Source: an uncultured bacterium (GTDB lineage: Bacteria > Babelota > Babeliae > Babelales > RVW-14). From it: 64,000 nt of DNA. Positions 15,959-55,139 of the stretch are shown one piece after another. The DNA is taken from NCBI GenBank assembly GCA_963759805.1, contig CAVXAT010000004.1, forward strand, positions 59,483-123,482. Reading direction: 5' to 3'. Numbering within the stretch: the first letter of the stretch is position 1; each line of letters begins with the position of its first letter. The position numbers and the translations under genes are program-made. The notes beneath the pieces were generated by a model. It was given only the letters and a program-made list of their open reading frames with translations. It had not been told where the DNA came from and ran no database searches.

Positions 15959-18900
15959 TTAATTCACGTTTTGGTAATCAAGTATTCCATTGGTTATATC
16001 CAATTGCCCGCCTGGGAGTATGTTTATTGCCAAGTCATCAGCTGAAGTTGCATCACCAAAGCAGATACTCTGCGCAAGACTTGTTGGTGTTCCAAATAAA
16101 ACATCGATTAATTGGTTGTCACTGTCAACGGTCAATGTTCCTTTTATTAAACACATTCCGACTGATGATGTTGCCAGTGCACATCCATTCAAATATAACT
16201 CTGAAGAAACATCTTGCATCGCAATTAGATTTCTACTCACAACACTTGGTGCATAATAGAAGAACACGCCATAATCCAATTTTAATCTTGAGTAACTGTT
16301 TATTGTCGATATTTGATCAGATGCGTAAATAAATTCATTTGAAAGCGAAAGCTCATTATTAGACTTGATTTCAACTTCGTCTTGGAATATCAGAGACCCA
16401 GCCGTAAAGCTGTAATCGCCCGTAATTTGTAATGTATCATTCTTGAATGTAATATTTGCGTTTGGACCTAAGCATCGTACATTGTTGTCTACAAGGCCAC
16501 TCAGGAGAAGGTTTTCTATCGTCAAGGTTCCACTTTGCATGATTTGGATGCTTTGCGTACCAAGATCAAGAGGGTTGCCATAACCATTGATTGCAGAATT
16601 CCCGCTGAATATCCATGGCATGGACATTGCCTGCTCATCTGCAAGATCAATTCTGCATCCATCGCCAAATGTTAATGTGGCACCGGCGCCCAGATGCACT
16701 GATGAGTCATCAAAGTTCTTCAGAACAACATTGTTAAGAATGACGTTACTATTTATCCCTGTTGTGAAAATATTGGGACTATCTTTTGCAAAATTTATCA
16801 TGTGTCCGTTACCATCAAGCACACAGCTGTTTGCAATATTTAGTGTATGGTCTGTACTCAAATAAATATCATATGGCATAGTATATGCAGGGGTGCTAAT
16901 TTGAGTAACACCCGGTCCATTTATGGTTATCATCTCTGCATTAATTTTTACAATAGCATTACTATTATTAACAGATAGAGTGCCTCCCGCCTGACCCAGT
17001 TTGATAATAGCGTTGCTGTTATCATAAACAAGCTCGGCAGGAGCTGCTGCATAAGTCACAATATTATTATTTAGAGAAGGTGCATATGAGACCAGGTTGT
17101 AATCTCCAAGCCCGCCGCCAACTGTATTCTTGATAATGGATCTGTCATTCCACCCAACCACAGTGTTTGCCTTCATGCGAATCTCAGAGTTGCTATTTTT
17201 TAGAACAAATCTTGCATCATCGTTGCTAAACATTGTGTAGCCAAGAGTGTTGTCGTAGTTAACAATTCCGTCGATTGAAACGTTTGCACCGGAAAGTAAC
17301 TTGACATTAAGATCACTTGTTTGACCTGCTGCCGAGTTGCCAAACACGATTGAGTTGGATATGGCTTGGGTCGATCTATTTACAACATAATTAGTACCAA
17401 ATATTTGTAGGCTATTGCTAGCATTAGCAGCAACAGCAAGATAGCGACCATCTGGTGACCAGGACACTGAATATGGACTATGTCCTATAGTTACACTACC
17501 AACTAATGTTGGGTTGCCGGACCCACTAAAACTACATATTAGCAGTGTGTTGCCATTATAACCAGTAACAGCAAGATAGCGACCATCCGGTGACCATGAT
17601 ACTGACAATGGTTGAGTTCCAGGATTTACACTGCCCACCAAGGCTGGACTAAGACCATAAAAGCTAAATATTTGCAACGTAATACTTGTCACATTAACAA
17701 CAGCAATAAAACGACCATCTGGTGACCAGGACACTGAATATGGCGCAGATCCTGTACTTACACTGCCAACCAATGTTGGATTACCGAGTCCACTGAAGCT
17801 AAACATTTGCAGCGTATTACTTGTCTTATTAACAACAGCAATAAAACGACCGTCTGGTGACCAGGACACTGAATATGGCGCAGATCCTGTACTTACACTA
17901 CCAACCAATGTTGGATTACCGAATCCACTGAAGCTAAACATTTGCAGCGTATTACTTGTCTCATTAACAACAGCAATAAAACGACCATCTGGTGACCAGG
18001 ACACTGAATATGGCGCAGACCCTGTACTTACACTACCAACCAATGTTGGATTACCGAATCCACTGAAGCTAAACATTTGCAGCGTATTACTTGTCTTATT
18101 AACAACAGCAATAAAACGACCATCCGGTGACCATGATACCGATATTGGACTATTTCCAGTACTTACGCTACCAACCAATGTTAGATACTCCGAACCACTG
18201 AAATTAAATATTTGTAGTGAATTACCGCCAGTACCATTATAGAAATTAACAACAGCAATAAAGCGCCCATCTGGTGACCAGGACACTGAATATGGATTAA
18301 TTCCAGTTACTGCGCCATGAATAAAGGCTATCGGTGAAGTATTTGTCGTGGCCAGATCTGATGTCGCATTACTTTTCATTGTAACCTTGTTGTCCAAGAG
18401 TATAGTTCCTTGGGTAAGCCTCAATCCAGTCAACGTTGTAAAGAACGAACATCCGTTTAGATAAAGTTGTGATGTTTGATCTGCCATTCTTATAAAATTA
18501 TTTGTAGTTGTCGTTGGCACGGTTGAATATGGGCAATCGGTAAATGTTGCAGGCGCAAGTGAAAAGGTTGTATTAACATCAAAAAATAGTCTGCCTCCTG
18601 ATGTTATCATCAACGGCTTTGGAGATCTGTAAACAAGTGCTGATGTGCCAGTAAATTTAACATCGTTATTAACAAACAACTTGCCGCGATCAAAATAAAA
18701 ATCATTTGCCGGAATCAAAGTTGCGTTGTCCAGCACAAGCTGACTGCGGTTTGAGGCCAACTTTATTGCAGGATTACCAGGGCCATTCAAAGTACTATCA
18801 ACAACAACGTTACGCAATGTCAACGTTATTGTGTCATCTACAAAGATTTCAGAATTAGCACCAATATTTACTGTGTTTCCGTTACCATCAAGCACTGCAT

Positions 18901-21900
18901 TGTTGCTGACGTGAACGATTGTGTTTGCAGGTATGTTCCAGTTCGAACCAACCAAAGTGTTTGGCACACCGGAATAATTTATTAGGTTAGTTGGAATTTG
19001 GGCATTTTTTGCACTTACATCGGAGATTAAATTGTAATCACCCAAACCGGCGTTTGAGACGTTAGAAATTATAGAGCTGTCTTGCCAACCAACCACGGTG
19101 TTTGGGGTCATGTGAATTTCAGAGTTGCTGTTTTTTAATACAAAGCTTGCATTGTTATTACTGAACATTGTGTAGCCCATGGTGTTGTCATAATTTAGAA
19201 TCCCGTCGACTGAGACATTTGCACCTGAAAGTAACTGAACGCCTAAGTCTGATGCTGATCCAGAGGCAGAGTTACCAAACACGATTGAATTGGTCAGAGC
19301 TTGGGTCAACCTATTTACAATGTAATTAACACCAAATACTTTTAACGTATTGGATGAATTATTAACAAGAGCAATAAAACGACCGTCTGGTGACCAGGCG
19401 ACTGAATATGGGTGAGTTCCGGTAGCAGCTACACCGTTGCCAGTAGTAACTTGAGTTGGGTTACCCGAACCACTGAATGTAAATATTTGCAATGTGGAAG
19501 AGTCACGATTAACAACAGCAAGAAAACGCCCATCCGATGACCAGGCTACTGCAAATGGAGAAGATCCGGTACTAGCTTGGCCAACCAATGTTGGGTTGCT
19601 GGTACCATTGAAGCCAAATATTTGCAATGTGGAGGAACCCAAATTAACAAGAGCAATAAAACGACCATCCGGTGACCAGACGACTGAATATGTGGTAGTT
19701 CCCGTAGTTACACCAGTGCCGGTAGTAATTTGGGTTGGGTTGCCAACCCCATTGAAGCTAAATATTTGCAATGTACCGACATCCCAATTAGAAACAGCAA
19801 TAAAACGTCCATCCGGTGACCATGCAACTGAAGCTGGTTTAGATCCGGTAGTTATACTGCCAACAAATGTTAGACTGCCACCCCCACTGAAGCTAAATAT
19901 TCGCAATGAATTTGGGGGACTACCAACAACAGCAATAAAACGCCCATCCGGTGACCAGGATGCTGCCCATGGGCCAGCTCCGGTAGCTACACCTGTGCCG
20001 GTAGTAACTTGAGTTGGGTTACCCGAACCACTGAATGTAAATATTTGCAATGTGTTAGTCGCCTGATTAGCAACAGCAATAAAACGCCCATCTGGCGACC
20101 ATAAAGCTGAAGTTGTGCTCCCTGCCACAGCTGCACTGCCAACCAATGTTAGGGTCCCAGCACCACTTACTCTAAATATTTGCAGAGAGCCCGGGGTAGT
20201 ATTATTAACAGTAGCAATAAATCTTCCATCCGGAGACCATGATCCCCAATTTGGTGTAGATCCGGTGGTTATGCCATGAAGACAAGCCACCGGGGTGGTA
20301 CTCGTCGTAGCCAAATCCGATGACGCATTGCTTCTCATCGTCACACGATTATCAAAAAACAATGACCCCGTTCTAAGTCTGCATCCGGTCAGTGTTGTTA
20401 AAAAACTGCATCCATTAAGATAAAGTTTCGATGTCTTATCTGCCATCCAAATAAAATTATTTGTTGTGTAAGTTGATTTTACCGAATAAGGACAATCGGT
20501 AAATGTTGCCGGTGCAACTGAGAATGTTGTTCCTGTATCAAAAAATAGTCGGCCACCCGATGTAATAAAGCTTGGCATTGGTGAAGTGTAAATAAATGCT
20601 GACGTTCCTGTAAATTTAACATCGTTATTAACAAACAGTTGACCATGGCTGAAATTAAAATCACCGATCATGTTTAGAGTTGAATTATCAAGCACAAGTT
20701 TACTTCTATTCGATGATAGATAAATTGCAGGATTACCCACAAAGTTTTCAGTGTTACTAATTACAACGTTTCTTAAAGTCAAAGTTACATTGTCATCAAC
20801 AAAGATTTCGGAATTAGCACCCAGATTTATAGTTCCACCATATCCATCCATTAAAATATTATTTTGAATGTGAACAATTGTATTTGCGGGAATATTCCAA
20901 TTAATGTACTGCATGCTGTTGTTAACTTCAGCGTAAGTTATGATGTTATTCGTACTGTAATCATACTGTTTTAAATTGTAATCTCCCAATCCTATACCAC
21001 TCACATTATTTACAATAGAACTATCTCGCCAGCCAAGCATTGTCGCTGGATTTATGCGAATCTCTGAGTTGCTGTTTTTTAACACAAAACTTGCATTGTT
21101 ATTACTGAATATTGATGTTGAATTCACATTATCGTAATTAACTATTCCGTCGACTGAGACATTTGCACCTGAAAGTAACTGAAGATTTAAGTCTGATGCA
21201 GAACCGACAGCCGAATTACCAAACACGATTGAATTAGACACAGCTTGTCCAGTTGTCTCTTGCCCATAAGCAAGAGCTCCTATCGACAGTGACTGGTAAC
21301 TTGCTGGGGTTGGTGTATAGCCACCGGCTGCCAGATAAAGGCCACTTGGATGTACATCAGTGCTATAAATGTAGGTACCAAAAGATACTGTTTGTATAAA
21401 AGTTAATGACGGAAATTCTATATAGAGTATCAGGTCTCTTGAGGCAGTATCATTTCCACCCACAAGTAAAAATCTTCCATCCGAGCTCCATTTTACCGTT
21501 CTTGCACTTGTCCCAAACGGTAACGCTGAGACTTGCACCGATGAGGTCGCTGCCGAATTCACTGAGTAAACATACATCGTGCCGGTGCCGGAAACCAACC
21601 CTGTTGTTGCCAAGTAGTTTCCATCAGGACTCCAGGAAACACTTGTTCCATACCCCGATGCATAATTTCTTGATAACAATGGAGATCCACCAAGGACTCC
21701 ATTAGTAACAGAGTAAACGGCTATACTTGCCGTTGCAGAGTTTGAAGCAATCGCAATATATTTTCCACTTGAATGCCAAGCAATTCCTAGAACCTCTGCC
21801 GTTGTTGCAGTTGAAACTTGATTTAAAGCACTTCCGGTGAACTGGTATATCGTCAAGTTTCGCATGTTACCGCCAACTGCCAGATAGTGCCCATCAGGGC

Positions 21901-22728
21901 TCCAACTTACCGGACCTGTGTATGAGGCACCCGTTGTACCAAGATTTGTCTGCACTACCGGTGAAGAAAAGTTATTAGCAGCTGAGTAAATTTGTAAGTT
22001 CGATGTTGATACCGTTAAAGATAAAGGTATATTTACTTTTCCACCCGCCGCCAAATACTGCCCATCAGGACTCCATGAAACACCAGATGCCGTCACCGAA
22101 AAGCCGACTGTTGCTAACGTTGACGTCGTCGTTCCAGAGAATAGATACACTGCCAAGTTATTTGCCTGTGGGCTCGTTCTTGTCTGACCCGCCACCGCCA
22201 ACTTTCTTCCGTCAGGACTCCAATGCAACTTATCAATTTCCCTGAATGCATTTGCAATACCGGTTCCAAGTGTAAGAATTGCGCTTGTACCTGTTGCCCT
22301 GAATGATGTCGCACTTGTCATTGTAACGTTATTACCAAGCAGCAACTGCCCTTTGGTCAGACGCATTCCTGTCAGCGTTGTTTTCAACGCCGTTCCGTCC
22401 AGTGTCAGCTTTGACGTGGCATCGCCCATTATCAACAGATCTTTTGCCAAAAGTCCGGTCGTACCGCTTGTAGAAGGTTCAAAGTAAAAGGTTGTCTTTG
22501 GGTTAAATTTAAGATTTGCTCCTGACATGATATAACTTGGAACAGTTGAGCGGTAAATAAATGAGCTTGTTCCGGTGAAAGTAACATCGTTGTAAGCAAA
22601 CAACTCTCCCTGATTAAAGTAAAAATCATTCACGAAATTCATTCTTGCATTATCAAGAACAAGTTTGCTTCTGCTTGTCGCAAGTTGTATCGGTGGATTA
22701 TTTGCAAAATTCTTACTGTTACTAATCA
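15959..22728 (-). CDS. giant modular surface protein, C-terminal about 2254 codons (severed from its N-terminus by an IS)
   Basis: Three 7-bladed propellers built from a 45-aa (V)SWSPDGRFIAV.. repeat (PD40/YVTN-like). They alternate with beta-helix-like segments (NWNIPANTIVHV.NN..LDGNGNT..IGANSEIFVDD..TLTLRNVV...NPAI.L.SNRS.LVLDN). The GTG start at 22729 in the ORF track is created at the IS junction. Confidence 0.8.
17698..18102. repeat. three near-identical tandem 135-bp units (45-aa propeller blades) inside the giant gene
   Basis: caacagcaataaaacgacc recurs at 17698, 17833, 17968 and 18103 (period 135). The units differ at only a few positions, and more diverged units flank them. Confidence 0.85.
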
Positions 22729-23894
22729 CAGGACTTCCTCAAAATAACAAACTGCCTGATCTAGTCTGATCTACAAAAAAAATGTACTCTCTCAGAAGGG
22801 TTTGATCGTACAAATCAAAATCTGAGGAGAGTACAATGCTTTATTCAAGCACAGTTCTAAAATATCCAGTCTTAACATTGTTGTCTAGAGGCAAGAGAAG
22901 CTTCGAAAATATGGGATTACTAATTCAGCGAAGTGGTGACACTGTAAAAAGGTTGCTACATCCAGCAGCGCACAGCTTCAATGTATCAAGAAGCATTTGC
23001 CAATCTATGTTTGCAAAAAATGAAATTTTATGTGTAGGCATTGATGATACCTTGTTGCGAAAAATTTATTCGAGATTTATGCAGGGTGCTGGAATGTTCT
23101 TTGATACGAAAATTGGTCGCAGTATCATGGCTTACAAGTTGGTGATTGGCATAATCACAGATGGTAAATTTGCAATCCCAATCGATTGTGCGTACATTTT
23201 TGCAAAAGAAATTCTCGATTCAATCGACGAAAAATTTCCAACAAAAGATGAAATTGCAAAATCATTTGTAAAAACAGCCATAAAACTTTTCCCAGACAAG
23301 AAAATAATTGTGGTTGTTGATGGACTTTACACATCAGTCGAGTTTGTACGATGGTGCAAGCTCGAAAACATCAAACTGGAGGCTCGAATGCATAGCAATC
23401 GCGTTGTTGAATACGATGGCGAGCGAATTAAAATCAAAGATCTTTTGAAGAAAAATGGATTGCGGCCCTTGGGCCGCCAGATGGCTCGTACAATATCTGT
23501 CGCTTGGCATTCAATTGATCTAGAGCTTACAATCGTGCGTCGTTTTGACAAAAAAGGCAGAGAATCGATTGTCTTTCAAGTGGCAACATATAAAGCTTTG
23601 CCTCGTGAACATGTTGCAAACTATAAAAAACGATGGAAAGTTGAAGAGCTGAACAGAACCACAAAACAAGAAATCGGGTTGCAAGAATGTTTTTCTAGAT
23701 CGCTTGAAACACAGCACAATCATGTAGCGTCTGTGCTTTTGGCTTATGCGTTTGCCCAGCTGGAGCGCAAATTTTCTAGACTTGATAACGTAGAACAAGC
23801 GCTCAGACGGTTTGAGACGAAAACTGTGAACTTTTTAATTGATAGATTTTCTAGATTTTCAAAGGGCTTTCAGCACTTTGATGCGTGAGTCCTG
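22729..23894 (+). mobile_element. IS element (IS4/IS5-superfamily DDE transposase), 1166 bp, 6-bp target duplication
   Basis: Ends caggacttcctc.. (22729) and ..gagtcctg (23894) form imperfect inverted repeats; the first 7 nt are identical. TAATCA is duplicated at 22723-22728 and 23895-23900. Confidence 0.8.
22836..23888 (+). CDS. DDE transposase (IS4/IS5 superfamily)
   Basis: GIDDT and VVVDGLY acidic motifs, plus YKKRWKVEELNRTTK, which fits the Y-2-R-3-E-6-K signature. RBS gaggag lies upstream. Confidence 0.8.
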   Translation: MLYSSTVLKYPVLTLLSRGKRSFENMGLLIQRSGDTVKRLLHPAAHSFNVSRSICQSMFAKNEILCVGIDDTLLRKIYSRFMQGAGMFFDTKIGRSIMAYKLVIGIITDGKFAIPIDCAYIFAKEILDSIDEKFPTKDEIAKSFVKTAIKLFPDKKIIVVVDGLYTSVEFVRWCKLENIKLEARMHSNRVVEYDGERIKIKDLLKKNGLRPLGRQMARTISVAWHSIDLELTIVRRFDKKGRESIVFQVATYKALPREHVANYKKRWKVEELNRTTKQEIGLQECFSRSLETQHNHVASVLLAYAFAQLERKFSRLDNVEQALRRFETKTVNFLIDRFSRFSKGFQHFDA

Positions 23895-24345
23895 TAATCA
23901 TAACGTTGCGCAATGTAAGCGTTACTGTGTCATCGATAAAGAGTTGTGAGTTTGCACCAAGGACAATTGTATTGCCATTGCCATCCAACACTGCGTTGTT
24001 ACTCACGTGAACAACTGTGTTTGCAGGGATGTTCCAGTTCGAACCTACCAACGTGTTTGGAACGCCAGGATAGTTTATTATTTTATTTGAACCTTGAGCA
24101 ATTGGATTTTGAGCATCTAAGATCAGGTTATAATCGCCCAAGCCTGCGTTTGCAGCGTTGGCAATTATCGAGTCGATTTGCCAACCTGAAATCGTAGCCG
24201 GCTTAAATCTGATTTGCGAATTGCTGTTCTTCAAAATAAATCGTGCGTTGTCGTTGTTAAAAGTCAAAGTTGCGTTAATTATATCTACACAGCACAAAGT
24301 CGTGAGCACCAAAATATATCTTAATTTAACCAAAGCAATCTTCAT
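23895..24345 (-). CDS. N-terminal fragment (signal peptide plus start of module 1) of the IS-disrupted giant surface protein
   Basis: MKIALVKLRYILVLTTLCCVDIINA signal peptide, then FNNDNARFILKNSNSQIR..NWNIPANTVVHVSNNAVLDGNGNT..TLTLRNVMI. The tracked ORF (23851..24345) reads on into the IS. Confidence 0.8.
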
Positions 24346-24395
24346 CTACCACTTCCTTTCCTGCTTTTTTTAGTTCCTAATTCTATATTTTATAA

Positions 24396-26517
24396 TTAAC
24401 TTACATTGTCGTAATTTATAATTCCATCAACTACTGCATTTGTTCCTGCGTACATACCAATATTCAAATCATAATTTGATCCTAACGCCGAGTTGCCAAA
24501 AACAATTGAGTTGGTCAGGGCTTGGATTTGCGTTTCATAGCTCCAGTGCAATGCCTGTACCTGCAACTCCTCAAATGATGGTGAATTGGCAACATTACCG
24601 GCAATAGCCAAAAAATTGTTATCTGGACTGAATGCAATACCACGAGCATAAGTTGAAGTAAAGTAAAATGTGCCAATTGAGGAAAGTGTATTCCTCACAA
24701 GTTGACAAACAGTAGCGTTATATGTCGGCGTTGTTTGATCTTGTCCGCAAAATGTCACGTAACGACCGGTTTTATCCCAGGCACAAGCATATCCCTGCGC
24801 ACCGGATGCAGCTGTTGTAAGGGTAGCAACACTGTACTAATGCACTACCGGTAAAATAATGCACCCAACCCATAGTTTGTGTCCCCGCAGTTGTTCCAGT
24901 TGCCAAAAATCTTCCATCCGGACTCCAAACAGTATCAGAAGCACTGGTAATAGTGTAACTATTAAGCAGAGGCAAAGACTTTCCCGTAAATTTGTATATC
25001 GAAAGATTATTCGCAGGGTTAGAACATGCAGCAATAGTTTGCCCATCAGGATTCCAAGATGCACCATAGCCATCGCCTCCCAAAGATGCTGATATAACAA
25101 AATTAAGAGAAATTCCTGTAAATGCATAAATAGCTAATTGATTTGAGCTCCAATTAGAAGCAACAGCAAGATAGCGTCCATCAGGACTCCAACGAGCAGT
25201 CCAGGCTGTGATACCAGAACCCGATACAAAAGCTATCTGTGCAAGAGTTGTTCCGTTAAAAGAATAAACTCTTACATAGGTATTCGATGAATCCAGTCCG
25301 GCACATGCTAAATATCTTCCATCCGGGCTCCAACTAACTCCAAGGCAAGAGTTTGCCCATATCGCAGTTTGAGTAATAGGGGTAAATGATGTTCCATTAA
25401 ACCCTAGAACTACAAATCTGACAGAGCCGGCAGGCCCACTATCAACACCAAAGGCTATGTATCTTCCCGAAGGATGCCAATCAACACAAGCGGCTCTTGA
25501 TGATGCCTGCCAGTTAGTAACGGTAGTAGAAAAGTCAGCAAGTCGAAATGCTGCGGCACTTGTCATTGAAACTTTGTTGTCAAATAACAACTGCCCCTTG
25601 GTTAAACGAAATCCGGTATATGTTGATTTAAGGGTGCAACTGTTTAAATAAAGCTGACTTGTCGGATCGGACATAAACAATAAATCTTTTGCCAAAAGTG
25701 AAGGGGTCCCGGTTGTGCTAGGATAAAAATCAAGTGTTGTTCCAACATCAAAGTACAATTTTGCCCCTGATGTTATAAAACTTGGTTGGCATGAGCGATA
25801 AAAGAATGCTGACGTACCGGTTACAGCAACATCATTATGAACAAACATGCTGCCTTGATTAAAATAAAAATCGTTGGGAAGATCAAGCTCAGCATTATCA
25901 AGACAAAGTTGGCTTTTAGAAGATGCACACTGGATGGCAGGACTCCCCGGACTGTTCAATGTCCCTTGCACTATCAGATTTTTCAGCGTCAGCGTAGCAC
26001 CGGTATCAACAAAAAGCTGTGCTCTGTTACCCAGTAATAATTTATGTCCATTCCCATCAATAACAATTCTGTCGCCTATGTGAATAACCTGTCCGGCAGG
26101 AATCGTTAAGTCTCCTTTTAAAATAAGCGCTCTGTCGTAACCATAAATGTTTCCGCCGGAAGAAAATGTAGCTCCATTATCCAGGGTTAAATCTGATTGA
26201 AGAAAAATCGTATTTGTTTGACGCAAATCAATGGCACCGGAGACGGAAAGACATGTGTCCATAAAAACACAGGAGCCATGAGTACGGCCAGGTCCTGTGC
26301 TTACAACAGTAACCGTAAATCCATTATCCATTCTGACCACACCAGAAGCAAATTGCTGATCATAAAAAACGTTATTAAAAGGTTGAAATGCGTAATAAGG
26401 CGGCGTAGTACCCGAACCGCCCAGACTTCCGGCAGATAAACTAAAAAAATACATTGCTGTAAAAATCACGACTCTTGTTAAAAAAAATAGCATCATTTTT
26501 TTAGATACAAACTTCAT
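24396..26517 (-). pseudogene. single-module paralog of the giant protein (signal peptide, beta-helix, 7-blade propeller), one frameshift
   Basis: ORFs 24772..26517 and 24396..24758. The downstream frame is open back to the TAG at about 24838-24840 and encodes ..SVATLTTAASGAQGYACAWDKTGRYVTFCG, a continuation of the blade repeat. The shift is at about 24830-24840. It ends ..DGIINYDNVS, like the module ends of the giant protein. Confidence 0.7.
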
Positions 26518-29696: not shown

Positions 29697-29712
29697 GTTT
29701 CCTGCCATTTTT

Positions 29713-29819
29713 GTCATGCTGAACTAGTTTCAGCATCCATGGATGAATTTATTCCAAATTTCTGCAATGGGGCAATAGGAACAACTAATCCATGGATCCT
29801 GAAATAAATTCAGGATGAC
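29713..29819. repeat. AT-rich palindromic element, copy 1 (107 bp)
   Basis: gtcatgctgaactagtttcagcatccatgga ... tccatggatcctgaaataaattcaggatgac. About 31-nt inverted arms, each itself a hairpin, around a 45-nt loop. Near-identical to 37250-37349. Confidence 0.85.
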
Positions 29820-30076
29820 AAATCTGTGATCGTAAGATATTTTTGACACGCGTGGCCCCTTTTATAAATTATCGAGTTCACGTTAATTAAATAAAGTTTG
29901 CAAAAATTTTGAAGTCCAAGACAAGTATTTAGCAAAAAATTGCGCAAATTGCGATCTGGAGCGAATTTTACTATTCCGTTTTATGGGCATTCCCATAACT
30001 AAAATATTTCGTGTTAATTTTTTTCCAAACAGTTAAAATGTTTTATGAAAACTTGTGATAAGTTGAAAGGAGTCAA

Positions 30077-34420: not shown

Positions 34421-36898
34421 TTATTTAACAACAAAACTAATTAAGCGATTGGGGACAAAGACAATTTTTACAATTTGTTTGTCCTGCAGCCAGCTTGCAA
34501 TAATATTTTTTGCCTGAGCTTCTACAACGGTTTGTGTTGAATCTTTTGGTAAAACAATTGAGCCACGTAATTTCCCATTAACCTGAATAGCAAATTCAAC
34601 ATCATTTTCTGCTGCAAGTGCGGCATCAAACGTTGGCCATTTGCAGTTTTCAAGTTGCTTGTCCAGTAACCGTTCAATTAACTCGCTAGAAAAGTGTGGC
34701 GTAATAATCGAGATTGCGACGAGTAACTGTTCTAGTATATCACGATCAAGTTTGTACTTGTTTTCTGTCAATTCGTTTAGATATTCCATTATCGCAGAAA
34801 CGGCGGTGTTTACTTTGAAATCATCAATTCGTTCCTGGTATTTTTTCAAGAAACGGTGAAATGCGCGCTTCGATTTTTCATCGGCATCGCCATGCGTTGC
34901 GTCTTTGCCTGCAGGCAGAATATTTTCAGAATTGGTCAGATATGCCCAAAGGCGATTCAGAAATGAACGTACCCCTTTGATTGAGTCGGACTGCCATTCG
35001 CAATCAAGCTCAGGAGGGCCCATGAACAGTTCATACATTCGCAGTGTATCTGCACCCATATTATCAATAATTTCGTCCGGTGTGACAACATTGCCTTTTG
35101 ATTTTGACATTTTTTCAACGCGACCAGTTATTGAAGACTTCATGCAAACCATTCCCTGGTTGAAAAGTTTTGCAAATGGTTCATCAAAATCAAGATATCC
35201 GGCATCGTGTAAAACTTTAATGTAAAAACGAGAATAGAGAAGATGTAGTACGGCGTGTTCAATTCCGCCAACATAAAGATCAACAGGCATCCAGTATTTT
35301 ACATCTTTGGGATTGAAAGCATGTTCATTGTCATGCGGGCTTGTGTAGCGAAGGAAGTACCAGCATGAGCCTGCCCATTGAGGCATTGTGTTTGTTTCAC
35401 GTTTTGCAGGGCCACCGCACTCAGGACAACTGGTATTTACCCATTCTTCAATGCCGGCCAGTGGAGATTCCCCTGTTCCTGTCGGTTCATATTTTTCAAC
35501 TTCAGGGAGTAGTATGGGGAGTTGATCTTCCGGAACGGCAACGATCCCACATTTTTTACAATGAACAAGCGGAATTGGTTCGCCCCAGTAACGTTGACGA
35601 GAGAATGTCCAGTCTCGTAATTTATATGTTATGTGTTGTTCAGCAGCCCCTTTTTTGGCAAGAAAGGCGACTATTTTTTTTGCGCCTTCGGTTTTGGCAT
35701 CCAGTCCGTCAAATTGGTCACTATTGATCATTGTGCCATCAGCTTCAAATGCTTGAGTTAATTTTCCGTTGGCATCCCTGAGTTCATCGAATGGATTTCT
35801 TGATTTGATAACTTCCCTGATTTGAAGATTAAATTTTTTGGCAAATTCAAAATCGCGCTGATCATGTGCAGGTACGGCCATGATTATACCGGTTCCATAA
35901 TGTTTAAGAACATAGCTTGAAAGATAGATAGGAAGCTTTTCGCCATTGACGGGATTGATGGCATATCGGCCTGTAAAAACTCCAGTTTTATCTTTTGTGT
36001 CTGTTGTTCTTTCAAGATCGCTAAGCTTGGCAACTTCAGTTTGATATGATTTTACTTGTGAGAGCTTATCCGGTGTAGTAATTTTGTCGACTAAATCATG
36101 ATCCGGGGCCATAACTATAAACGACGCACCAAAGAGCGTGTCGGGGCGTGTTGTGAAAACAATTAAATCTATAGTATTATCTGTTTTAAACGTATCTGTT
36201 TTAAAAGTAATTTTTGCTCCAACGCTTTTGCCTATCCAGTTGATTTGCATCAATTTTACTTTTTCAGACCAGTCTAATTTCTCAAGTCCCGAAATCAATT
36301 TTTCAGCATATTTAGTAATTCTTAAAACCCATTGTCTGATTGGTTTTTGAAATGTTTGTGTTCCGCACCTATCACACGCTCCGCCTACAACCTCTTCATT
36401 GGCCAGTCCCGTTAAGCATTTTGGACACCAGTTAATGGGCATGTTCTCTTCATATGCAAGCCCCATTTTAAACATTTGCAAAAATATCCACTGTGTCCAT
36501 CTATAATAATGTGGATCGGTAGTATTTACCTCTCTGTCCCAATCATATATTGCGCCAATTTTTTCAAGCTGCTTTTTAAAGCTTTCAATATTCTGTTTTG
36601 TACAAATTGCCGGATGAATTCCTTGTTTAATTGCGTAATTTTCAGCCGGAAGTCCAAATGCATCCCATCCCATTGGATGTAAAACATTGTATCCCATAAA
36701 CCACTTCATGCGGGCATAAACATCGGAAAAAACGTACCCCTTCCAATGGCCAACGTGTAGTCCTGCTCCGGACGGGTATGGAAACATATCAAGACAGTAA
36801 AACTTTTTATCAGAATAACTATTTCTTGTTTTAAAATATGGATTCTTGCGCCAGTTCGAGCGCCATTTTCCTTCAATAGACTTAAAATCATAACTCAT
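34421..36898 (-). CDS. leuS: leucine--tRNA ligase
   Basis: PYPSGAGLHVGH (HIGH) and KMSKSKGNVV (KMSKS). 825 aa with Zn-finger Cys pairs. Confidence 0.95.
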   Translation of the reverse strand: MSYDFKSIEGKWRSNWRKNPYFKTRNSYSDKKFYCLDMFPYPSGAGLHVGHWKGYVFSDVYARMKWFMGYNVLHPMGWDAFGLPAENYAIKQGIHPAICTKQNIESFKKQLEKIGAIYDWDREVNTTDPHYYRWTQWIFLQMFKMGLAYEENMPINWCPKCLTGLANEEVVGGACDRCGTQTFQKPIRQWVLRITKYAEKLISGLEKLDWSEKVKLMQINWIGKSVGAKITFKTDTFKTDNTIDLIVFTTRPDTLFGASFIVMAPDHDLVDKITTPDKLSQVKSYQTEVAKLSDLERTTDTKDKTGVFTGRYAINPVNGEKLPIYLSSYVLKHYGTGIIMAVPAHDQRDFEFAKKFNLQIREVIKSRNPFDELRDANGKLTQAFEADGTMINSDQFDGLDAKTEGAKKIVAFLAKKGAAEQHITYKLRDWTFSRQRYWGEPIPLVHCKKCGIVAVPEDQLPILLPEVEKYEPTGTGESPLAGIEEWVNTSCPECGGPAKRETNTMPQWAGSCWYFLRYTSPHDNEHAFNPKDVKYWMPVDLYVGGIEHAVLHLLYSRFYIKVLHDAGYLDFDEPFAKLFNQGMVCMKSSITGRVEKMSKSKGNVVTPDEIIDNMGADTLRMYELFMGPPELDCEWQSDSIKGVRSFLNRLWAYLTNSENILPAGKDATHGDADEKSKRAFHRFLKKYQERIDDFKVNTAVSAIMEYLNELTENKYKLDRDILEQLLVAISIITPHFSSELIERLLDKQLENCKWPTFDAALAAENDVEFAIQVNGKLRGSIVLPKDSTQTVVEAQAKNIIASWLQDKQIVKIVFVPNRLISFVVK

Positions 36899-36978
36899 GA
36901 GGCATCCTTTGTTAACATCAGTTCGATAATTATAAAAAACAGCTGTGAATGCTAAAAGTGGCTTCCGACCAGAGATGT

Positions 36979-37349
36979 GTCATCCTGAATTTATTTCACA
37001 ACTGTCCGAAGTGCTTTTAAAGCCATCTGAACGCTTGTTGCGCTCACTCAAGGGCGCTCGCCCTGAGTGCCGAGCCTTGCGAGGCGTATCGAAGGGTACG
37101 CCCTAAAAACTTATTCTATCCGCCGTTGCGCTCTATCCTTCGATACGATTTGCTAAGCAACAAGTTGCTTGCAAATCACTCAGGACGAGTGCGATGAAAA
37201 CCATACGCATCCGACGATTCAAAGCTACGTTTAACACTTCGGACAGTTATGAATTTATTTCAGGATCCATGGATAGATTTATTCCAAATTTCTGCAATTG
37301 AGCAATAGGAGCAACTAATCCATGGATCCTGAAATAAATTCAGGATGAC
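36979..37349. repeat. AT-rich palindromic element, copy 2, interrupted by a nested GC-rich element
   Basis: The left-arm start gtcatcctgaatttatttca (36979-36998) and the remainder tgaatttatttcaggatccatgga...tccatggatcctgaaataaattcaggatgac (37250-37349) reconstitute a copy of 29713-29819. Confidence 0.85.
36999..37249. mobile_element. GC-rich modular repeat, copy D (251 bp, MITE-like: 14-bp terminal inverted repeats, 13-bp flanking direct repeat)
   Basis: aactgtccgaagtg (37000-37013) is the reverse complement of cacttcggacagtt (37235-37248). Flanked by tgaatttatttca at 36986-36998 and 37250-37262. The interior holds two modules shared with copies B and C. Confidence 0.75.
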
Positions 37350-37661
37350 AAATATGCAATTCAAAGGCTTCTCACTGTAAGCATTTTAAACTTTGCTGGG
37401 TTATCGAATTGGTGCTTTGTTATTAACAGTTCAAAATTAACTTGTAGATTAACATAATTTCTGCGGGTTTGAAAACATGGACAGAAGATCTCTTTCTAAA
37501 TTTTTGGAGCCTGGCCTTTACCGCTTACAATCTAGCCGATTATTTACAAATGATAAATTTATTGACTTAAGAGTATTCAACTTTGTAGCATGATACTAGA
37601 GGCGATAAGTTTAGTTTTATGCATTGGACCTAGTAACTCAATTTTACAGGGGGGAGGGTTT

Positions 37662-39113
37662 ATGAAGCCTAAGGTAACAAGGGAATGTTTTTTTTGTTTG
37701 TCGAAATATTTTCTATTAATATTTTTATTGTTTTTTGCGCATACTGTTTTTGCCTCAACTGCCGAATGGACTGTACTTGTTTATGTACAGGCAAACAATA
37801 ATCTCAAAAAGTTTGCTCAACGTAATTTTGCTGATATGGCTTCGATTGGATCGAGCGAAAATTTAAATATTCTTATGCAAAGCTACTTCCCTCAAGTCAA
37901 CGGAACTTCGCGTTATAAAATTGAAAAGGACAAGATGGTTTTGGACTCACATATACAAATAAATAGCGATGGAACAACATCCAATGATTTAGTAGATGCT
38001 ATGCGTTGGGCTGTTACAAAATATCCGGCAAAAAAATATGCACTTATTTTATGGAATCACGGAGTTGGAATATTAGATCCGATTTGGGGAAATAAAAGTC
38101 CATACCAAACAACACAAAAATTTTATATCGAGCCGGCACTGCTTGATGCATCTCCAAGAATTCAAATTGATGGGTTGACGGTTAATGATATGTATGTGGA
38201 TACAAGACAGACGTTAACATGTTGTCAGGCGGATGTTGATCTAAGTTCTGCCCAGGAAATTGAAAAGATTTTAAAAGAGACTGAGATTCAGGCGGCGAGT
38301 GATGCAAAGCTTGAGACGTATCTTATTCGTGGAATTCTTTTCAATGAGCAGTCTCGAAATTATATGACAAATCAGGCTCTAACCAGTGCTTTGCAGGAGA
38401 TAAAAACAAGTATTCTGAAAAATAATAAAATTGATGTTTTGGGTATGGATGCATGTTTGATGGCGATGATAGAGGTTGGGTATCAGGCAAAAAATTTTGC
38501 GCATTATCTCATTGCATCTGAAGAGGCGGAGTTGGCACATGGATGGGATTATGCGGCTTTGTGCGGTGCTTTAAACAGTAAAGATTGTACCCCGGCACAG
38601 GTAGCGCAGGGGGTTGTTCTTGCCTATGAAATGTTATACAAGAATAAAATTCAATTTTATACCCAGTCGGCCATTGATTTGAAATGTATGGATGATCTTA
38701 AAAAATCTGTGGATGAGTTCGTTTATAATATAAAATCATGCAAAAACATAGATAAAACTTTGACTGAACAACTAATCAGAAGGGCGAGAAATTTATGTTT
38801 ACAATTTAGCGCTACAAACTATGTTGATTTGCATTCTTACTGTTCAGAGTTTTTGAATCAAATTGATGTTTTTAAAAATAATCAGATTATAAGTAAGCGA
38901 GAATTTGTAAATTTAAAAAACTCACTGATAAAAACAAATAAAATTATTGAGCAGTCTGTTATTGCAAATGTTTCAGGTAAGCAGTTTGCAAATGCCAAAG
39001 GCCTTTCTATCTATTTTCCAAAATCGCATGTTGAACAGTCTTATTTACAATCAGATTTTGGCAAAAGCTCTGCTTGGGCAAATTTTATTTCAGAGAATAT
39101 AAAGAATTATTGA
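37662..39113 (+). CDS. peptidase C11 (clostripain-like), intact paralog
   Basis: The ATG at 37662 follows ggggggaggg. Signal peptide, then WTVLVYVQANNNL, ALILWNHGVG and VLGMDACLMAMIEV. Confidence 0.8.
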   Translation: MKPKVTRECFFCLSKYFLLIFLLFFAHTVFASTAEWTVLVYVQANNNLKKFAQRNFADMASIGSSENLNILMQSYFPQVNGTSRYKIEKDKMVLDSHIQINSDGTTSNDLVDAMRWAVTKYPAKKYALILWNHGVGILDPIWGNKSPYQTTQKFYIEPALLDASPRIQIDGLTVNDMYVDTRQTLTCCQADVDLSSAQEIEKILKETEIQAASDAKLETYLIRGILFNEQSRNYMTNQALTSALQEIKTSILKNNKIDVLGMDACLMAMIEVGYQAKNFAHYLIASEEAELAHGWDYAALCGALNSKDCTPAQVAQGVVLAYEMLYKNKIQFYTQSAIDLKCMDDLKKSVDEFVYNIKSCKNIDKTLTEQLIRRARNLCLQFSATNYVDLHSYCSEFLNQIDVFKNNQIISKREFVNLKNSLIKTNKIIEQSVIANVSGKQFANAKGLSIYFPKSHVEQSYLQSDFGKSSAWANFISENIKNY

Positions 39114-41686: not shown

Positions 41687-43687
41687 ATGCTAAGTAAAGA
41701 ACAGATTGATGCGAAACATCTTTTATACCTAAAACACCAGGCTCTTAATTTAAGAATAGATTCTATTCGGGCAACCACGCAAAGTAAATCAGGACATCCG
41801 ACCTCCTGCCTTTCTATAGCTGATATTGTTGCAACAATTTTTTTTAATTTTTTGCGTTACGATTTAAAAAATCCAAAACATCCAAATAACGATCGGGTAA
41901 TTCTTTCCAAGGGGCATGCAATTCCGGTGATATATGCTGCATGGAAGCAGTTTGGAGTTATCAGCGACGAAGAGCTGATGTCCCTGCGTAAGTTTACTTC
42001 CCCTCTTGAGGGACATCCAACGCCGACATTTGCATACAATGAAGCTGCAACAGGGTCGTTGGGCCAAGGCCTATCTATTGGCCTGGGAATGGCGCTGGCT
42101 GCGCGCCTAGATAAATTGGATTTCACAACCTATGTTTTGATGGGTGATGGAGAAATAGCAGAGGGTTCGATCTGGGAAGCCGCAGAACTGGCTGCTTTTT
42201 ATAAAGTTGATAATTTAATTGGATTTGTTGATTGTAATCGATTAGGGCAGTCTGGACCAACATTGCATGAGCATCAAGTTCAAAATTATGTGAATAAATT
42301 CCAAGCTTTTGGCTGGAAAACATTATCTATCGACGGACATGATATTTCGCAGATAGTTGATGCAATAAATGTTGCAAAAAGTACTAAGAATCAGCCAACG
42401 ATGATTATTGCAAAAACAGTTAAGGGGTATGGCCTTGAGGGAATTGAGAATGAGGCAAATTGGCACGGCAAGCCTCTTACTCAAGAAGCTGCAGAAAAAG
42501 CAATTTCACAGCTTAAAATGACATTTAATAGACTTCTTCCGAAGCCTGGCGCGTCCGTCTACGCCAAGGCTACGACGGATGGTTCGACAAGCTCACCACG
42601 AGCGCGCCTACTTAATCCCGCTCATCCTGAGTGTTTTGCGAAGCTTGCTGAGCAAAATGTATCGAAGGATTGTCCTGCCTGCCCGCCCGGCGTAGCTACC
42701 TCGAGCGGAGCCTGGGTGCCTGCCGACCTGCTTCAAGATCCAAACAAAAAATATTTTGAAAAGAATGCGTTACTCTCAACCCGCAAAGCCTATGGATACG
42801 CCTTGCAATCACTCGGGCAAGACAATCCTGACATTGTTGCCCTTGATGCTGATGTTAGCAATTCGACTTTTTCAGATATTTTTGCCAAAACCTTTCCTGA
42901 AAGATTTATTCAGTGTTTTATTGCTGAACAGAACATGATTGGGGTTTGCGCCGGGTTGCAATCTCGTGGCAAAATTCCTTTCGCTGCCACATTTGCAGCA
43001 TTTTTAACGCGTGCTTTTGATCAGTTGCGTATGGCAGGAATTGGGCGCAATGCCTTGAGGGTCTGCGGTTCGCATTGTGGCGTTTCAATCGGGCAAGACG
43101 GGCCATCGCAGATGGGGCTTGAAGATATAGCAATGTTCAATACGATCCCAAATTCCATAATCTTGTATCCATCGGATGCTGTTTGCACTTATAAACTTAT
43201 GAATTTGTGTGCTACTTACAACGATGGCATTTCTTACTTGCGTACGACTCGTGCAGACACGCCTGTCATTTACGATCTGGACGAGAAGTTTGAAATTGGC
43301 AAATGTAAAGTCCTGCGACAGAGCGAGAAAGACGTTTGTTGCCTTGTTGCTGCAGGGATAACTTTGCACGAAGCTCTTAAAGCATACGAGCAACTAAAAT
43401 CCCAAGGCATTTCAGTTGCTGTAATTGATCTTTACTCCGTCAAGCCCATGGATATCCAAACTATACTTAAAGTTGCCCAAAAATCTGGCAATAAAATTAT
43501 TTCAGTCGAGGATCATTATATTAACGGTGGAATTGGGCAGATGCTTGCAGCCCAAATTATTAATTCTGGAATTAAACAGAAAATGCTTGGAGTTACAAAA
43601 ATTTCCAGGTCCGGAACGCCTCAAGAACTTATGCATGACGCTGGAATAGACGCTGACAGTATTATCAGAGCTGTAAAAGAATTTTAG
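41687..43687 (+). CDS. tkt: transketolase (fused N- and C-terminal halves) carrying an in-frame GC-rich repeat at the inter-domain linker
   Basis: SGHPTSCLS, GSLGQGLSIGLGMA and MGDGEIAEGSIWEA (TPP-binding) in the N-half. STRKAYGYAL...FIAEQNM..GQDGPSQMGLEDIA in the C-half. Confidence 0.9.
   Translation: MLSKEQIDAKHLLYLKHQALNLRIDSIRATTQSKSGHPTSCLSIADIVATIFFNFLRYDLKNPKHPNNDRVILSKGHAIPVIYAAWKQFGVISDEELMSLRKFTSPLEGHPTPTFAYNEAATGSLGQGLSIGLGMALAARLDKLDFTTYVLMGDGEIAEGSIWEAAELAAFYKVDNLIGFVDCNRLGQSGPTLHEHQVQNYVNKFQAFGWKTLSIDGHDISQIVDAINVAKSTKNQPTMIIAKTVKGYGLEGIENEANWHGKPLTQEAAEKAISQLKMTFNRLLPKPGASVYAKATTDGSTSSPRARLLNPAHPECFAKLAEQNVSKDCPACPPGVATSSGAWVPADLLQDPNKKYFEKNALLSTRKAYGYALQSLGQDNPDIVALDADVSNSTFSDIFAKTFPERFIQCFIAEQNMIGVCAGLQSRGKIPFAATFAAFLTRAFDQLRMAGIGRNALRVCGSHCGVSIGQDGPSQMGLEDIAMFNTIPNSIILYPSDAVCTYKLMNLCATYNDGISYLRTTRADTPVIYDLDEKFEIGKCKVLRQSEKDVCCLVAAGITLHEALKAYEQLKSQGISVAVIDLYSVKPMDIQTILKVAQKSGNKIISVEDHYINGGIGQMLAAQIINSGIKQKMLGVTKISRSGTPQELMHDAGIDADSIIRAVKEF
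42536..42730. repeat. GC-rich modular repeat, copy B (in-frame inside tkt)
   Basis: About 63% G+C by hand count over 42541-42600, against AT-rich flanks. Shares a 31-nt identity with 12195-12225. Contains the module ctcaTCCTgagtg..gtatcgaAGGAt (42621-42670). Confidence 0.8.
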
Positions 43688-53714: not shown

Positions 53715-53799
53715 GGGGAGATTCCCGAGTGGTTAAAGGGGACGGACTGTAAATCCGTTGGCTATGCCTTCGTAGGTTCGAATCCTACTCTCCCCACCA
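53715..53799 (+). tRNA. tRNA-Tyr (GTA), CCA encoded
   Basis: Hand-folded. Acceptor ggggaga/tctcccc, anticodon stem acgga/tccgt with loop ctGTAaa, long variable arm, T-arm gtagg-ttcgaat-cctac, then A-CCA. Confidence 0.9.
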
Positions 53800-53925
53800 T
53801 CCTTCGCCCTCGTTTTGCTCGTGGCTACGGATGGCAAGCCAGTCTTCGATGCTATGCAGCTTTCGCCGTCGCATAAAGCTATGGCGGGCACGGCGTCTGG
53901 CGCCCTACATGACTTCCGCGATAGT
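53800..53925. repeat. GC-rich repeat, copy F, abutting the tRNA-Tyr 3' end (possibly the outer left end of the adjacent IS200-like element)
   Basis: A GC-rich island starts at the base after the CCA. ggctacggatgg resembles ggctacgacggatgg of copy B, and ctggcgcc is related to the shared ctggcgcg. Confidence 0.55.
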
Positions 53926-53929
53926 TTTT

Positions 53930-54490
53930 TAGTAAAAGAGCTGAAACCCCCAGGTCTTTCAAGCCTGGGGATGAAAGCTCACCGCTGGCGCGAAGCAAAA
54001 TTAGTTTACTAAATTTTGCGAAGAGCCACTGGAAATGGCATACTATGATACATGGAAAAGTATTGGACAGGTGCGCATACGAAACACAGGCTAATGTATC
54101 ATATAGTATGGATTCCCAAGTATAGAAAAAGAGTATTGAAGGGAAAGGTCGCGGAGCGACTGAAGGAGTTGTTTTTACAGTGCGCAGACGTTAATAAATG
54201 GGAAGTTAAAGAGCTAAGCATTCAAGAAGATCACGTGCATATGCTAATTCAGTTAAAACAAAATATAAGTGTAAGCTATGCAGTTCAGTTGTTAAAGGGT
54301 GGAAGCAGCAAAGTAATTAGGGAAGAGTTTCCGGAGCTTGAAGAGTTCTTATGGGGTGACAGCTTCTGGTCAGATGGATATTTTGCTGAGACGGTTGGTG
54401 AGGTAAATGTGAATAAAGTTAGAGAGTACATAAAAAATCAATAAGGTAGAAGCACCGCGCTTTTAAGCCGGTGCGATTCACTTAATAAAT
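53930..54490 (+). mobile_element. IS200/IS605-family element (tnpA only); boundaries approximate, may extend left to 53800
   Basis: Y1 transposase ORF flanked by subterminal hairpins: ccccagg..cctgggg (53948-53970) upstream and gcaccg..cggtgc (about 54452-54478) downstream. No tnpB. Confidence 0.6.
54052..54444 (+). CDS. tnpA: IS200-type Y1 (HUH) transposase TnpA
   Basis: YHIVWIPKYRKRVL, HVHMLI (HUH), LKGGSSKVIREEFPEL, FWSDGYFAETVG (catalytic Tyr) and REYIKNQ. Confidence 0.9.
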   Translation: MEKYWTGAHTKHRLMYHIVWIPKYRKRVLKGKVAERLKELFLQCADVNKWEVKELSIQEDHVHMLIQLKQNISVSYAVQLLKGGSSKVIREEFPELEEFLWGDSFWSDGYFAETVGEVNVNKVREYIKNQ

Positions 54491-54570
54491 TAATAATTGA
54501 TATGCTATGAAATTCGGATATACTGTTTTTTACCGTACTTTAATAGTAAAATGTTATTGAAATTTAGTGT

Positions 54571-54647
54571 GCGGGAGTAGCTCAATTGGCTAGAGCGACA
54601 GCCTTCCAAGCTGTAGGTTGCGGGTTCGAGACCCGTTTCCCGCTCCA
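54571..54647 (+). tRNA. tRNA-Gly (TCC), CCA encoded
   Basis: Hand-folded. Acceptor gcgggag/ttcccgc, anticodon stem acagc/gctgt with loop ctTCCaa, T-arm gcggg-ttcgaga-cccgt. Confidence 0.85.
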
Positions 54648-54655
54648 GAAGCAGT

Positions 54656-54731
54656 GCTGGCATAGCTCAGTTGGTAGAGCAGCTGATTTGTAATCAGCAG
54701 GTCGCTGGTTCAAGTCCAGTTGCCAGCTCCA
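54656..54731 (+). tRNA. tRNA-Thr (TGT), CCA encoded
   Basis: Hand-folded. Acceptor gctggca/tgccagc, anticodon stem gctga/tcagc with loop ttTGTaa, T-loop ttcaagt. Confidence 0.85.
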
Positions 54732-54749
54732 ATTCAAGCGAGTGTGTTA

Positions 54750-54824
<75 letters not shown>

Positions 54825-54895
54825 TCCAGGACTTACAAAATAATGTAGTAGAGTTTTGAATTTTTTGGGGTTTATAAATTTAGGATTTTGCAGCC

Positions 54896-55054
54896 ATGGC
54901 AAAAGCTAGAACGATCATTCACTTAGAGTGTAAAGATTGCAAAATGAAAAATTACAGCAAGCATGTTTCAAAAAAAAGAGCATTTGCGAAGCTGGAGTTG
55001 AATAAGTATTGTGAGAAATGCCGAAAGCATTGCGCACATAAGGAAACGAAGTAG
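54896..55054 (+). CDS. rpmG: 50S ribosomal protein L33 (Zn-ribbon type)
   Basis: Own translation (below the ORF-track size cutoff): MAKARTIIHLECKDCKMKNYSKHVSKKRAFAKLELNKYCEKCRKHCAHKETK, 52 aa. Confidence 0.85.
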   Translation: MAKARTIIHLECKDCKMKNYSKHVSKKRAFAKLELNKYCEKCRKHCAHKETK

Positions 55055-55062
55055 AAAGAGTT

Positions 55063-55139
55063 AGGCCAGTAGCTCTAATTGGTAGAGCGGCAGACTCCAA
55101 ATCTGCGGGTTGGGGGTTCGAATCCCTCCTGGCCTGCCA
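55063..55139 (+). tRNA. tRNA-Trp (CCA), CCA end encoded
   Basis: Hand-folded. Acceptor aggccag/ctggcct, anticodon stem gcaga/tctgc with loop ctCCAaa, T-loop ttcgaat. Confidence 0.85.

Follow-up and report, generated by a model that had tools for sequence, protein, structure and literature searches.

The 64-kb window (the whole stretch of DNA analysed here) contains the leucyl-tRNA synthetase gene leuS and, divergently transcribed, a gene for a clostripain-like C11 peptidase whose start is probably the ATG near 37663 (Table 1). The spacer between the two genes measures 763 nt here versus 254-255 nt in eight relatives (L133-L137, L141-L143), and alignment to these relatives places the extra DNA at ~36910-37421. 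This DNA is a palindromic element of 499 bp as found, or 235 bp without a smaller block nested in it, with outer termini that are complementary at 12 of 14 positions; the same terminus, YRCCARTTCGATAA, adjoins related palindromic elements in three other loci (L132, L118, L087). In all eight relatives the spacer lacks both the palindromic element and the block and reads CTTCATAAT or CTTTATAAT once at the unoccupied position; the host palindromic element is therefore itself an insertion, with a 9-bp duplication. The first-pass annotation had proposed looking for an empty palindromic element at the orthologous site. The eight relatives lack the composite as a whole, and in none of them does a palindromic element without the nested insert occupy the leuS locus. 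From the nesting, we infer that the host element arrived first and the block afterwards. Besides, the composite starts 17 nt upstream of the leuS start codon (36899-36915), just past a likely AAGGA ribosome-binding site, and at this spot its 499 bp displace, by ~0.5 kb, any promoter that the relatives use for leuS. A promoter and terminator scan of the spacer performed no better than on shuffled sequences. Elsewhere in the window, on the minus strand at 17100-26000, lies a cluster of large paralogous genes with internal tandem repeats of ~135 nt (45 aa; families D1-D15), possibly of beta-propeller type.

Table 1. Features of the leuS locus, flanks of elements with the same ends, and GIY-YIG genes between GC-rich modules. 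Positions are those of the window unless another locus is named.
Feature	Position	Strand	Remarks
leuS (leucyl-tRNA synthetase)	34421-36898	-	ORF; best matches are Babeliales/Dependentiae LeuS proteins (MAGs), 90-92% identical
Peptidase C11 (clostripain-like) gene, divergent neighbour	37590-39113	+	ORF; PF03415 in syntenic gene of relatives
9-bp duplication, left copy CTTTGTTAA	36907-36915	+	8/9 positions match right copy
9-bp duplication, right copy CTTTGTTAT	37415-37423	+	
Outer palindromic element (copy 2 and outer arms)	36916-37414		Termini CATCAGTTCGATAA and TTATCGAATTGGTG
Start of left arm, GTCATCC	36979-36985		Sequence read directly
Split left arm, first half: GTCATCC and hairpin 13-mer TGAATTTATTTCA (36986-36998)	36979-36998	+	
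Nested 251-bp block, limits of the first-pass annotation	36999-37249		Very probably an IS4-type MITE
Inner GC-rich unit	37054-37192		Module M 37054-37095, 41-nt spacer, inverted module 37137-37192
13-mer TGAATTTATTTCA, right copy	37250-37262	+	GGATCCATGGAT follows; right flank also read as ggatccatggat
Rest of palindromic core: GGATCCATGGAT, 43-nt centre, right arm	37263-37349		
Intact right arm ATCCATGGATCC-TGAAATAAATTCA-GGATGAC	37318-37349		
Palindromic copy 1	29707-29826		Uninterrupted, paralogous empty target; 91% identical to copy 2 over 107 nt
Flanking 11-mers, window: GAATTTATTTC	36987-36997, 37251-37261		11/11
Flanking 11-mers, L036 (same locus as L125): GAAACGAGTTC			11/11
Flanking 11-mers, L123: GAATCAAGTTC			11/11
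Flanking 11-mers, L138: GGGCTTGACCC			11/11, in a different palindrome
Flanking 11-mers, L130			10/11
Flanking 11-mers, L128			9/11; full IS on a 1.5-kb contig, possibly chimeric
Flanking 11-mers, L121			10/11 as reverse complement (inverted, not direct)
GIY-YIG ORF	L036 4106-4396		PF01541, E 2.9e-16, 60 bits (cutoff 22.6)
GIY-YIG ORFs, two copies	L063 2282-2569 and 7185-7460		
GIY-YIG ORF	L119 ~50-343	-	Adjoins an IS end
GIY-YIG pseudogene	L031 6663-6944		
GIY-YIG remnant, 21 codons	L008 745-807		

The left arm of palindromic copy 2 had been described at first pass as split by a 251-bp block, and we find it interrupted at exactly these coordinates. When 36999-37262 is excised in silico, the left arm becomes the reverse complement of the right arm at 32 of 32 positions, and the shortened copy 2 aligns without gaps with the uninterrupted copy 1. 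Intact copies of the 32-nt arm, GTCATCCTGAATTTATTTCAGGATCCATGGAT, are limited to the right arms of copy 1 (29788-29819) and copy 2, and a repeat finder pairs each half of the split arm with the intact right arm. The block itself reads C, AACTGTCCGAAGTG (37000-37013), the interior, CACTTCGGACAGTT (37235-37248) and A; the same repeat finder recovered its perfect 14-bp inverted termini, in agreement with the earlier description. The direct repeat around the block is exactly 13 nt long, the adjoining bases mismatching on either side. The G+C content of the block is 49.8% compared with 37.9% for the window, and it is touched by a single ORF, a mechanical one of 53 aa. The nested insertion is real and, with both its ends and its duplication perfect, looks recent.

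By our estimate, chance would yield ~0.2 perfect 14-bp inverted repeats within 1 kb in 64 kb. Only two cases of a TGAA-N5-TTCA 13-mer recurring within 1.6 kb exist in ~0.93 Mb (the window and the fetched loci), and since both bracket elements with the termini of the block, a chance origin is excluded. The region folds into nested cruciforms with a z-score of -10.8, as expected given the nested palindromes. Rfam at gathering thresholds returned tRNAs only for the window, with no covariance-model match for the block or its modules, and at E values up to 10 it gave just spurious miRNA and snoRNA matches to the palindrome in 36850-37650. A hammerhead-like reading of CUGAGUG...CGAAGG, made by eye, failed on the core and found no Rfam match, and was dropped.

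The ends of the block led to a larger element. We scanned metagenomes with TTCAYAACTGTCCGARGTGYT, which returned 12 AT-rich contigs; the GC-rich metagenome matches L120, L126 and L127 represent one conserved gene sequence that fits the pattern by accident, and they are not elements. The ends of the block, (A)YAACTGTCCGAAGTG, are identical to those of transposase-bearing L128, L119, L138 and L139, and in the metagenomic Dependentiae contigs L128, L119 and L138 they bound 1253-bp transposase-encoding elements. L128 has ~1.25 kb between its ends and a single 388-aa ORF, L119 holds a second transposase copy with 81% amino-acid identity, and L138 is an intact 1253-bp copy on a 17.7-kb contig with perfect ends and a perfect 11-bp duplication. 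The 388-aa ORF matches the NCBIfam model for IS4 family transposases (NF033592) with 170 bits (cutoff 115, E 5.8e-50) and Pfam DDE_Tnp_1 (PF01609) with an E value of 1.4e-15, and its translation shows the YREK motif Y(2)R(3)E(6)K as YKARWDIEVFFKFIK. A search with the protein returned 930 relatives, mostly on ~1.3-kb contigs, as a collapsed repeat would give. In L140, a 5'-truncated IS (no left terminus visible; transposase ORF of 380 rather than 388 aa) apparently occupies the L121 locus, and the downstream flanks of the two are identical.

Members of the IS4 family have short terminal inverted repeats, a single ORF with the YREK motif and a target duplication of about one helical turn (PMC2266710). 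The duplication is ~10 bp (8-13 bp) in this family as against 4-6 bp in IS701, ISH3 and IS1634 (PMC2266710, Table 1), and amounts to 10-13 bp in the IS4 subgroup and 10-12 bp in IS231 (PMC2266710). The parent element represented by L128 and L138 has a single-ORF DDE transposase with YREK and an 11-bp duplication. As for subgroup features, its ends, (A)YAACT, are only loosely like the -AATR of subgroup IS4, and its size fits IS4Sa. The IS4 subgroup shows a relaxed first end nucleotide, some IS4-family members are strikingly target-specific, and IS231 is known to carry passenger genes (PMC2266710).

The same ends also enclose other small cassettes of 177-627 bp (L121, L130, L123 and L036). In L036, AACTGTCCGAGGTG and TACTTCGGACAGTT stand at the two sides of a cassette of ~625-627 nt that is flanked on both sides by TGAAACGAGTTCA, and the first ~40 nt of its left end are common to the IS copy in L128, which shows that the cassettes derive from this IS. 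GC-rich modules are found in each of the three small cassette types (window, L036, L121/L130). The MITEs in L121 (574-746) and L130 (1805-2046) are near-identical save for one clean 69-nt GC-rich indel inside a module, which independently points to the gain and loss of GC-rich modules on their own. As to the window, it holds only one copy with these ends, and tblastn with the IS transposase found no homolog in its 64 kb. In ~1 Mb of related loci, BLAST with the whole block returned GC-rich modules only and no second copy of the same MITE interior; none of the 117 loci of our genome scan (described below) overlaps the window. Beyond the terminal ~16 nt, the similarity of the subterminal regions of the window element to the IS ends was not significant when tested against shuffles, and we limit the claim of sharedness to these terminal ~16 nt.

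Taken by itself, the block has IS-identical ends, a length of 251-253 bp, no transposase ORF and a duplication of the same length as that of the parent. Its presence is polymorphic both among paralogous sites, where neither copy 1 nor the right arm of copy 2 is interrupted, and at the orthologous site, where the eight relatives lack the composite. We therefore consider it very probable that the block derives from a Dependentiae IS4-family IS as a miniature, non-autonomous form (a MITE, or mobile insertion cassette). Nested transposition of this sort is a known kind of event.

Comparison across insertions sets the length of the duplication. Because A-Y precedes the ends in every AT-rich contig, we defined the ends as A-Y-AACTG...CAGTT-R-T, and compared the 11 nt outside them; across insertions these ends read A-Y-AACTGTCCGARGTG. 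Among the other copies with such termini, L036, L123 and L138 carry a direct repeat matching at 11 of 11 positions (Table 1), and L138 and L123 separate 11 from 13 bp, as the bases immediately outside the 11-mer differ there. Judged from this comparison of sequences, the true duplication in the window is most likely the 11-bp GAATTTATTTC, and the element would then most likely span 253 bp (36998-37250) with 16-nt ends A-Y-AACTGTCCGAAGTG. The 13-mer is seen because the target T-GAATTTATTTC-A coincides with the element ends A...T at one base on each side. The earlier reading of the repeat as a target-site duplication hence stands as regards its origin in the target, yet its length is more likely 11 than 13 bp. 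Two departures from the pattern may be mentioned: L130 shows an extra partial tandem copy, GGATCCTGAAATAAATT, just upstream, and for the inverted flanks of L121 (574-746) we conjecture that copies in opposite arms of a single palindrome recombined.

The duplicated target is always dyad-symmetric, of the form N3-N5-N3, and lies at the tip of a longer palindrome, e.g. ATCCTGAA-N5-TTCAGGAT or TTCCGGG-N5-CCCGGAA. Its class is GAA-N5-TTC, in L138 GGG-N5-CCC, and nearly all ends in AT-rich contigs adjoin (G)ATCC-TGAA-N5-TTC. The loop sequences (TTTAT, ACGAG, TCAAG, ATAAA, CTTGA) vary among sites and are identical within each, which shows that the repeat derives from the target and is not borne by the element.

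Some palindromic elements adjoin an IS-type terminus themselves. In L132 (350-420), and also in L118, L122, L124 and L131, such a terminus, ~22 nt (ctgaattgctttcgctagagcc) and ATTT precede the palindromic element, and this terminus in turn adjoins another hairpin target. The hairpin-bearing repeats thus look like cassettes belonging to this IS family, which permits self-nesting, and positions 36934-36978 of the window look like a degenerate version of terminus, ctgaattgctttcgctagagcc and ATTT.

The interior of the block tells a different part of the story. Its two GC-rich modules, which had been noted as common to tkt and the region upstream of the pilin gene, were recovered by pattern match: the module core, CTCRYCCTGAGTG-hairpin-GTATCGAAGG, is present as two inverted copies in the block (37057-37095 and 37137-37189), and the same module lies in tkt (42621-42668) and upstream of the pilin-like ORF (10585-10623), with four pattern matches observed against zero expected. 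The whole unit reads GCGCTCGCCCTGAGTG-hairpin-GTATCGAAGG, 41 nt, CCTTCGATAC-hairpin-CACTCAGGACGAGTGC, and the GC-rich pair has conserved ends of its own, CCGCTCGYCCTGAGTG and CACTCAGGGCGAGCGG. Units of this M-spacer-rcM architecture recur in many genomes; in nine other loci (including L004, L023, L060, L101, L112, L098, L024 and L102) they have neither IS-type termini nor a flanking duplication, and the modules in tkt, at 10585 and at 12195 likewise lack IS-type termini. Since it has its own ends and occurs without those of the IS, we class the GC-rich pair as a passenger or as an insertion at a third level. Full-length L128 and L138 contain no GC-rich modules.

A genome scan with the module pattern against species-representative genomes gave 117 loci (L001-L117), mostly from Dependentiae, and the family now comprises 144 module instances. 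Beyond Dependentiae, the core was found in 38 instances in 37 GC-rich loci, from MAGs of Sphingomonadales and other Alphaproteobacteria, Myxococcota, Dehalococcoidia, Acidobacteria and Nitrospinota; we estimate ~2 chance matches for the whole collection. Across those loci the core is identical and the hairpin inserts (10-40 nt) are variable, often GAAG-capped. Further, several loci contain GIY-YIG ORFs (~96 aa, PF01541), each directly between inverted GC-rich modules (Table 1), while the window contains no GIY-YIG ORF. The unit in the block is a miniature form of the repeat that flanks a GIY-YIG nuclease gene elsewhere. The arms of the second copy in L063 lack a hairpin (CGTTCGTCCTGAGCTTGTCGAAGGATACG), which suggests that the module hairpins are secondary insertions at the module centre.

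Several further observations concern GC-rich sequences in the window. Modules stand in frame in two genes that remain unbroken, namely at 42529-42745 in tkt (ORF 41687-43687) and at 12156-12319 in a 987-aa ORF (11250-14213); both in-frame insertions encode the peptide DGSTSSPRAR, which recalls Rickettsia palindromic elements. Upstream of the prepilin-like ORF lies a 95-nt GC-rich block (10548-10642) bracketed by the 9-nt direct repeat GAACCATGC (10539-10547, 10643-10651), the second copy of which overlaps the module motif GTATCGAA. Five tRNA genes are found at 53715-55136, with a GC-rich segment of ~200 nt (53790-53997) directly after the first, and this segment may likewise belong to the GC-rich repeat family.

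For the nested block, we propose that a DDE transposase supplied in trans recognises the ~16-nt ends and moves the element by cut and paste, as suggested by analogy with Tn5, Tn10 and IS231A. The ends would be joined to an 11-nt-staggered target cut, symmetric about the tip of a palindrome able to form a hairpin. Three stem bp, a 5-nt loop and three more stem bp would make up the duplicated target, here GAA-TTTAT-TTC within ATCCTGAA-N5-TTCAGGAT, and gap repair would yield the duplication. The hairpin would have been supplied by the palindromic element, inserted earlier next to leuS, and the GC-rich pair, a GIY-YIG-associated inverted-repeat module, would be a third selfish unit unrelated to the other two, present as cargo or as a secondary insertion. 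Selfish DNA is thus nested here in three layers, and no evidence points to a cellular function.

This differs from the first-pass annotation, in which the inverted repeats and the duplication counted as direct evidence for mobility of the GC-rich family; on that view both belong to this family, which transposes as a 251-bp unit. The G+C content of the block, above that of the genome, and the modules in all three small cassette types speak for such ownership. However, the full-length elements with the same ends encode an IS4 transposase and hold no modules, nine other M-spacer-rcM loci have their own ends and neither such termini nor a duplication, and the modules in tkt, at 10585 and at 12195 lack these termini as well; we thus regard ownership by the GC-rich family as improbable. 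What can be kept of one repeat inserting into another is that a transposon-type insertion sits inside another element, but the family credited with it is not the owner of the repeats. A slightly less probable explanation still is that a GIY-YIG nuclease, and not a DDE transposase, cuts the hairpin and drives a homing-like insertion. The 627-bp cassette in L036, with the same ends and target, has a GIY-YIG gene and no transposase, GIY-YIG genes are central in the palindromic-type elements of L118 and L131, and in L119 one adjoins an IS end. Yet L138, with its DDE transposase and the same ends, target type and 11-bp duplication, explains all of this without new chemistry, and the window element carries no ORF for such a nuclease. 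Besides, we know of no GIY-YIG homing that gives terminal inverted repeats together with 11-bp duplications, which counts against this explanation.

Strong site specificity, with insertions in the same hairpin type, could also be taken to mean that the 13-mer is the attachment-site core of a site-specific recombination system or, as had been considered at first pass, a tandem 13-mer intrinsic to a long variant of the palindromic element. The flanking repeat, however, changes by site and is not carried by the element, the variation of the loops between sites rules out an attachment core, L138 lies in an unrelated palindrome, and no recombinase is associated. Uninterrupted arms, moreover, always have a single hairpin 13-mer (window copy 1, copy 2 right arm, L132, L118, L122 and L131). 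We give these two readings next to no credence, and the IS4-type derivative described above remains our explanation of the block.

A more speculative extension concerns the GIY-YIG genes. In L118 (703-939) and, degraded, in L131 (~614-784), a second GIY-YIG type (...REKQLKRW...) is central in palindromic-type elements, placed between GTCATCC-hairpin-GGATCCATGGAT arms, and the palindromic copies in the window may be miniature forms of such units. It is conceivable, if on balance doubtful, that both the GC-rich modules and the AT-rich palindromic element are miniature relics of undescribed tiny selfish GIY-YIG units that an IS4-type hyper-parasite targets. Such a unit may comprise a nuclease gene of ~90-100 aa between structured inverted-repeat arms; one unit may insert into the arms of another or, in frame, into a gene such as tkt, and units may hitch-hike on IS4-type cassettes. 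Their 23-nt module core may have spread across phyla (Dependentiae, Alphaproteobacteria/Sphingomonadales, Myxococcota and Chloroflexi MAGs), its hairpin varying while the structure is preserved. If this were true, the IS4-type element would be a hyper-parasite aimed at the hairpin arms of GIY-YIG units. A literature search returned no GIY-YIG elements with inverted repeats and duplications, no GIY-YIG genes in Dependentiae and no MITEs in Dependentiae.

The Dependentiae (TM6) are a phylum of protist parasites that are uncultured or poorly cultured. They now gain a concrete and testable mobile-element system, with IS4-family ends, an 11-bp duplication, a hairpin-tip target and MITE or cassette derivatives, and the locus offers a clean three-layer nesting of selfish DNA directly upstream of an essential gene. 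In annotating such genomes, GC-rich and palindromic repeats should be kept apart as two families with different routes of mobilisation, and the GIY-YIG-associated module family may turn out to be the more interesting lead.

Among known systems, the closest are the IS4 and IS231 subgroups and their MITE or MIC231-type derivatives, which share a single-ORF YREK DDE transposase, short inverted repeats and target specificity with the elements described here. MIC231 cassettes consist of IS231-type ends around passenger DNA, and here, too, IS ends flank unrelated passenger DNA. The target of IS231A is GGG(N)5CCC, a pattern that the L138 duplication GGGCTTGACCC fits. The 11-bp duplication likewise compares with 10-13 and 10-12 bp in the two subgroups (PMC2266710). 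On the other hand, the Dependentiae end sequence AYAACTGTCCGAAGTG exactly matches no subgroup consensus, and the Dependentiae IS is, at 1253 bp, shorter than members of the IS4 subgroup (1400-1650 bp). Further differences from IS4 and IS231 are the host phylum, the hairpin tip of another mobile repeat as target and the GIY-YIG-associated modules as cargo.

Precedents also exist for insertion into repeated extragenic palindromes at their loop or tip, and hence for the nesting of one repeat in another. IS1397 and ISKpn1 target loops of REP/BIME units, and IS110/IS1111 elements target REP-like sequences; unlike the block, however, they belong to the IS3 or IS110 family, make duplications of 3-4 bp or none and employ other chemistry. 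In being small non-autonomous repeats in a reduced, AT-rich intracellular genome, the repeats at the leuS locus resemble Rickettsia palindromic elements, the QMITEs of Coxiella and the Cardinium MITE. MITEs and palindromic elements of intracellular bacteria are the subject of two reports (PMC5896051, PMC9769881). Some such elements lie in frame in genes, as do the GC-rich modules in tkt. This likeness is one of general character, and the present system differs from the Rickettsia, Coxiella and Cardinium repeats in that both the autonomous parent IS and the target duplication can be identified.
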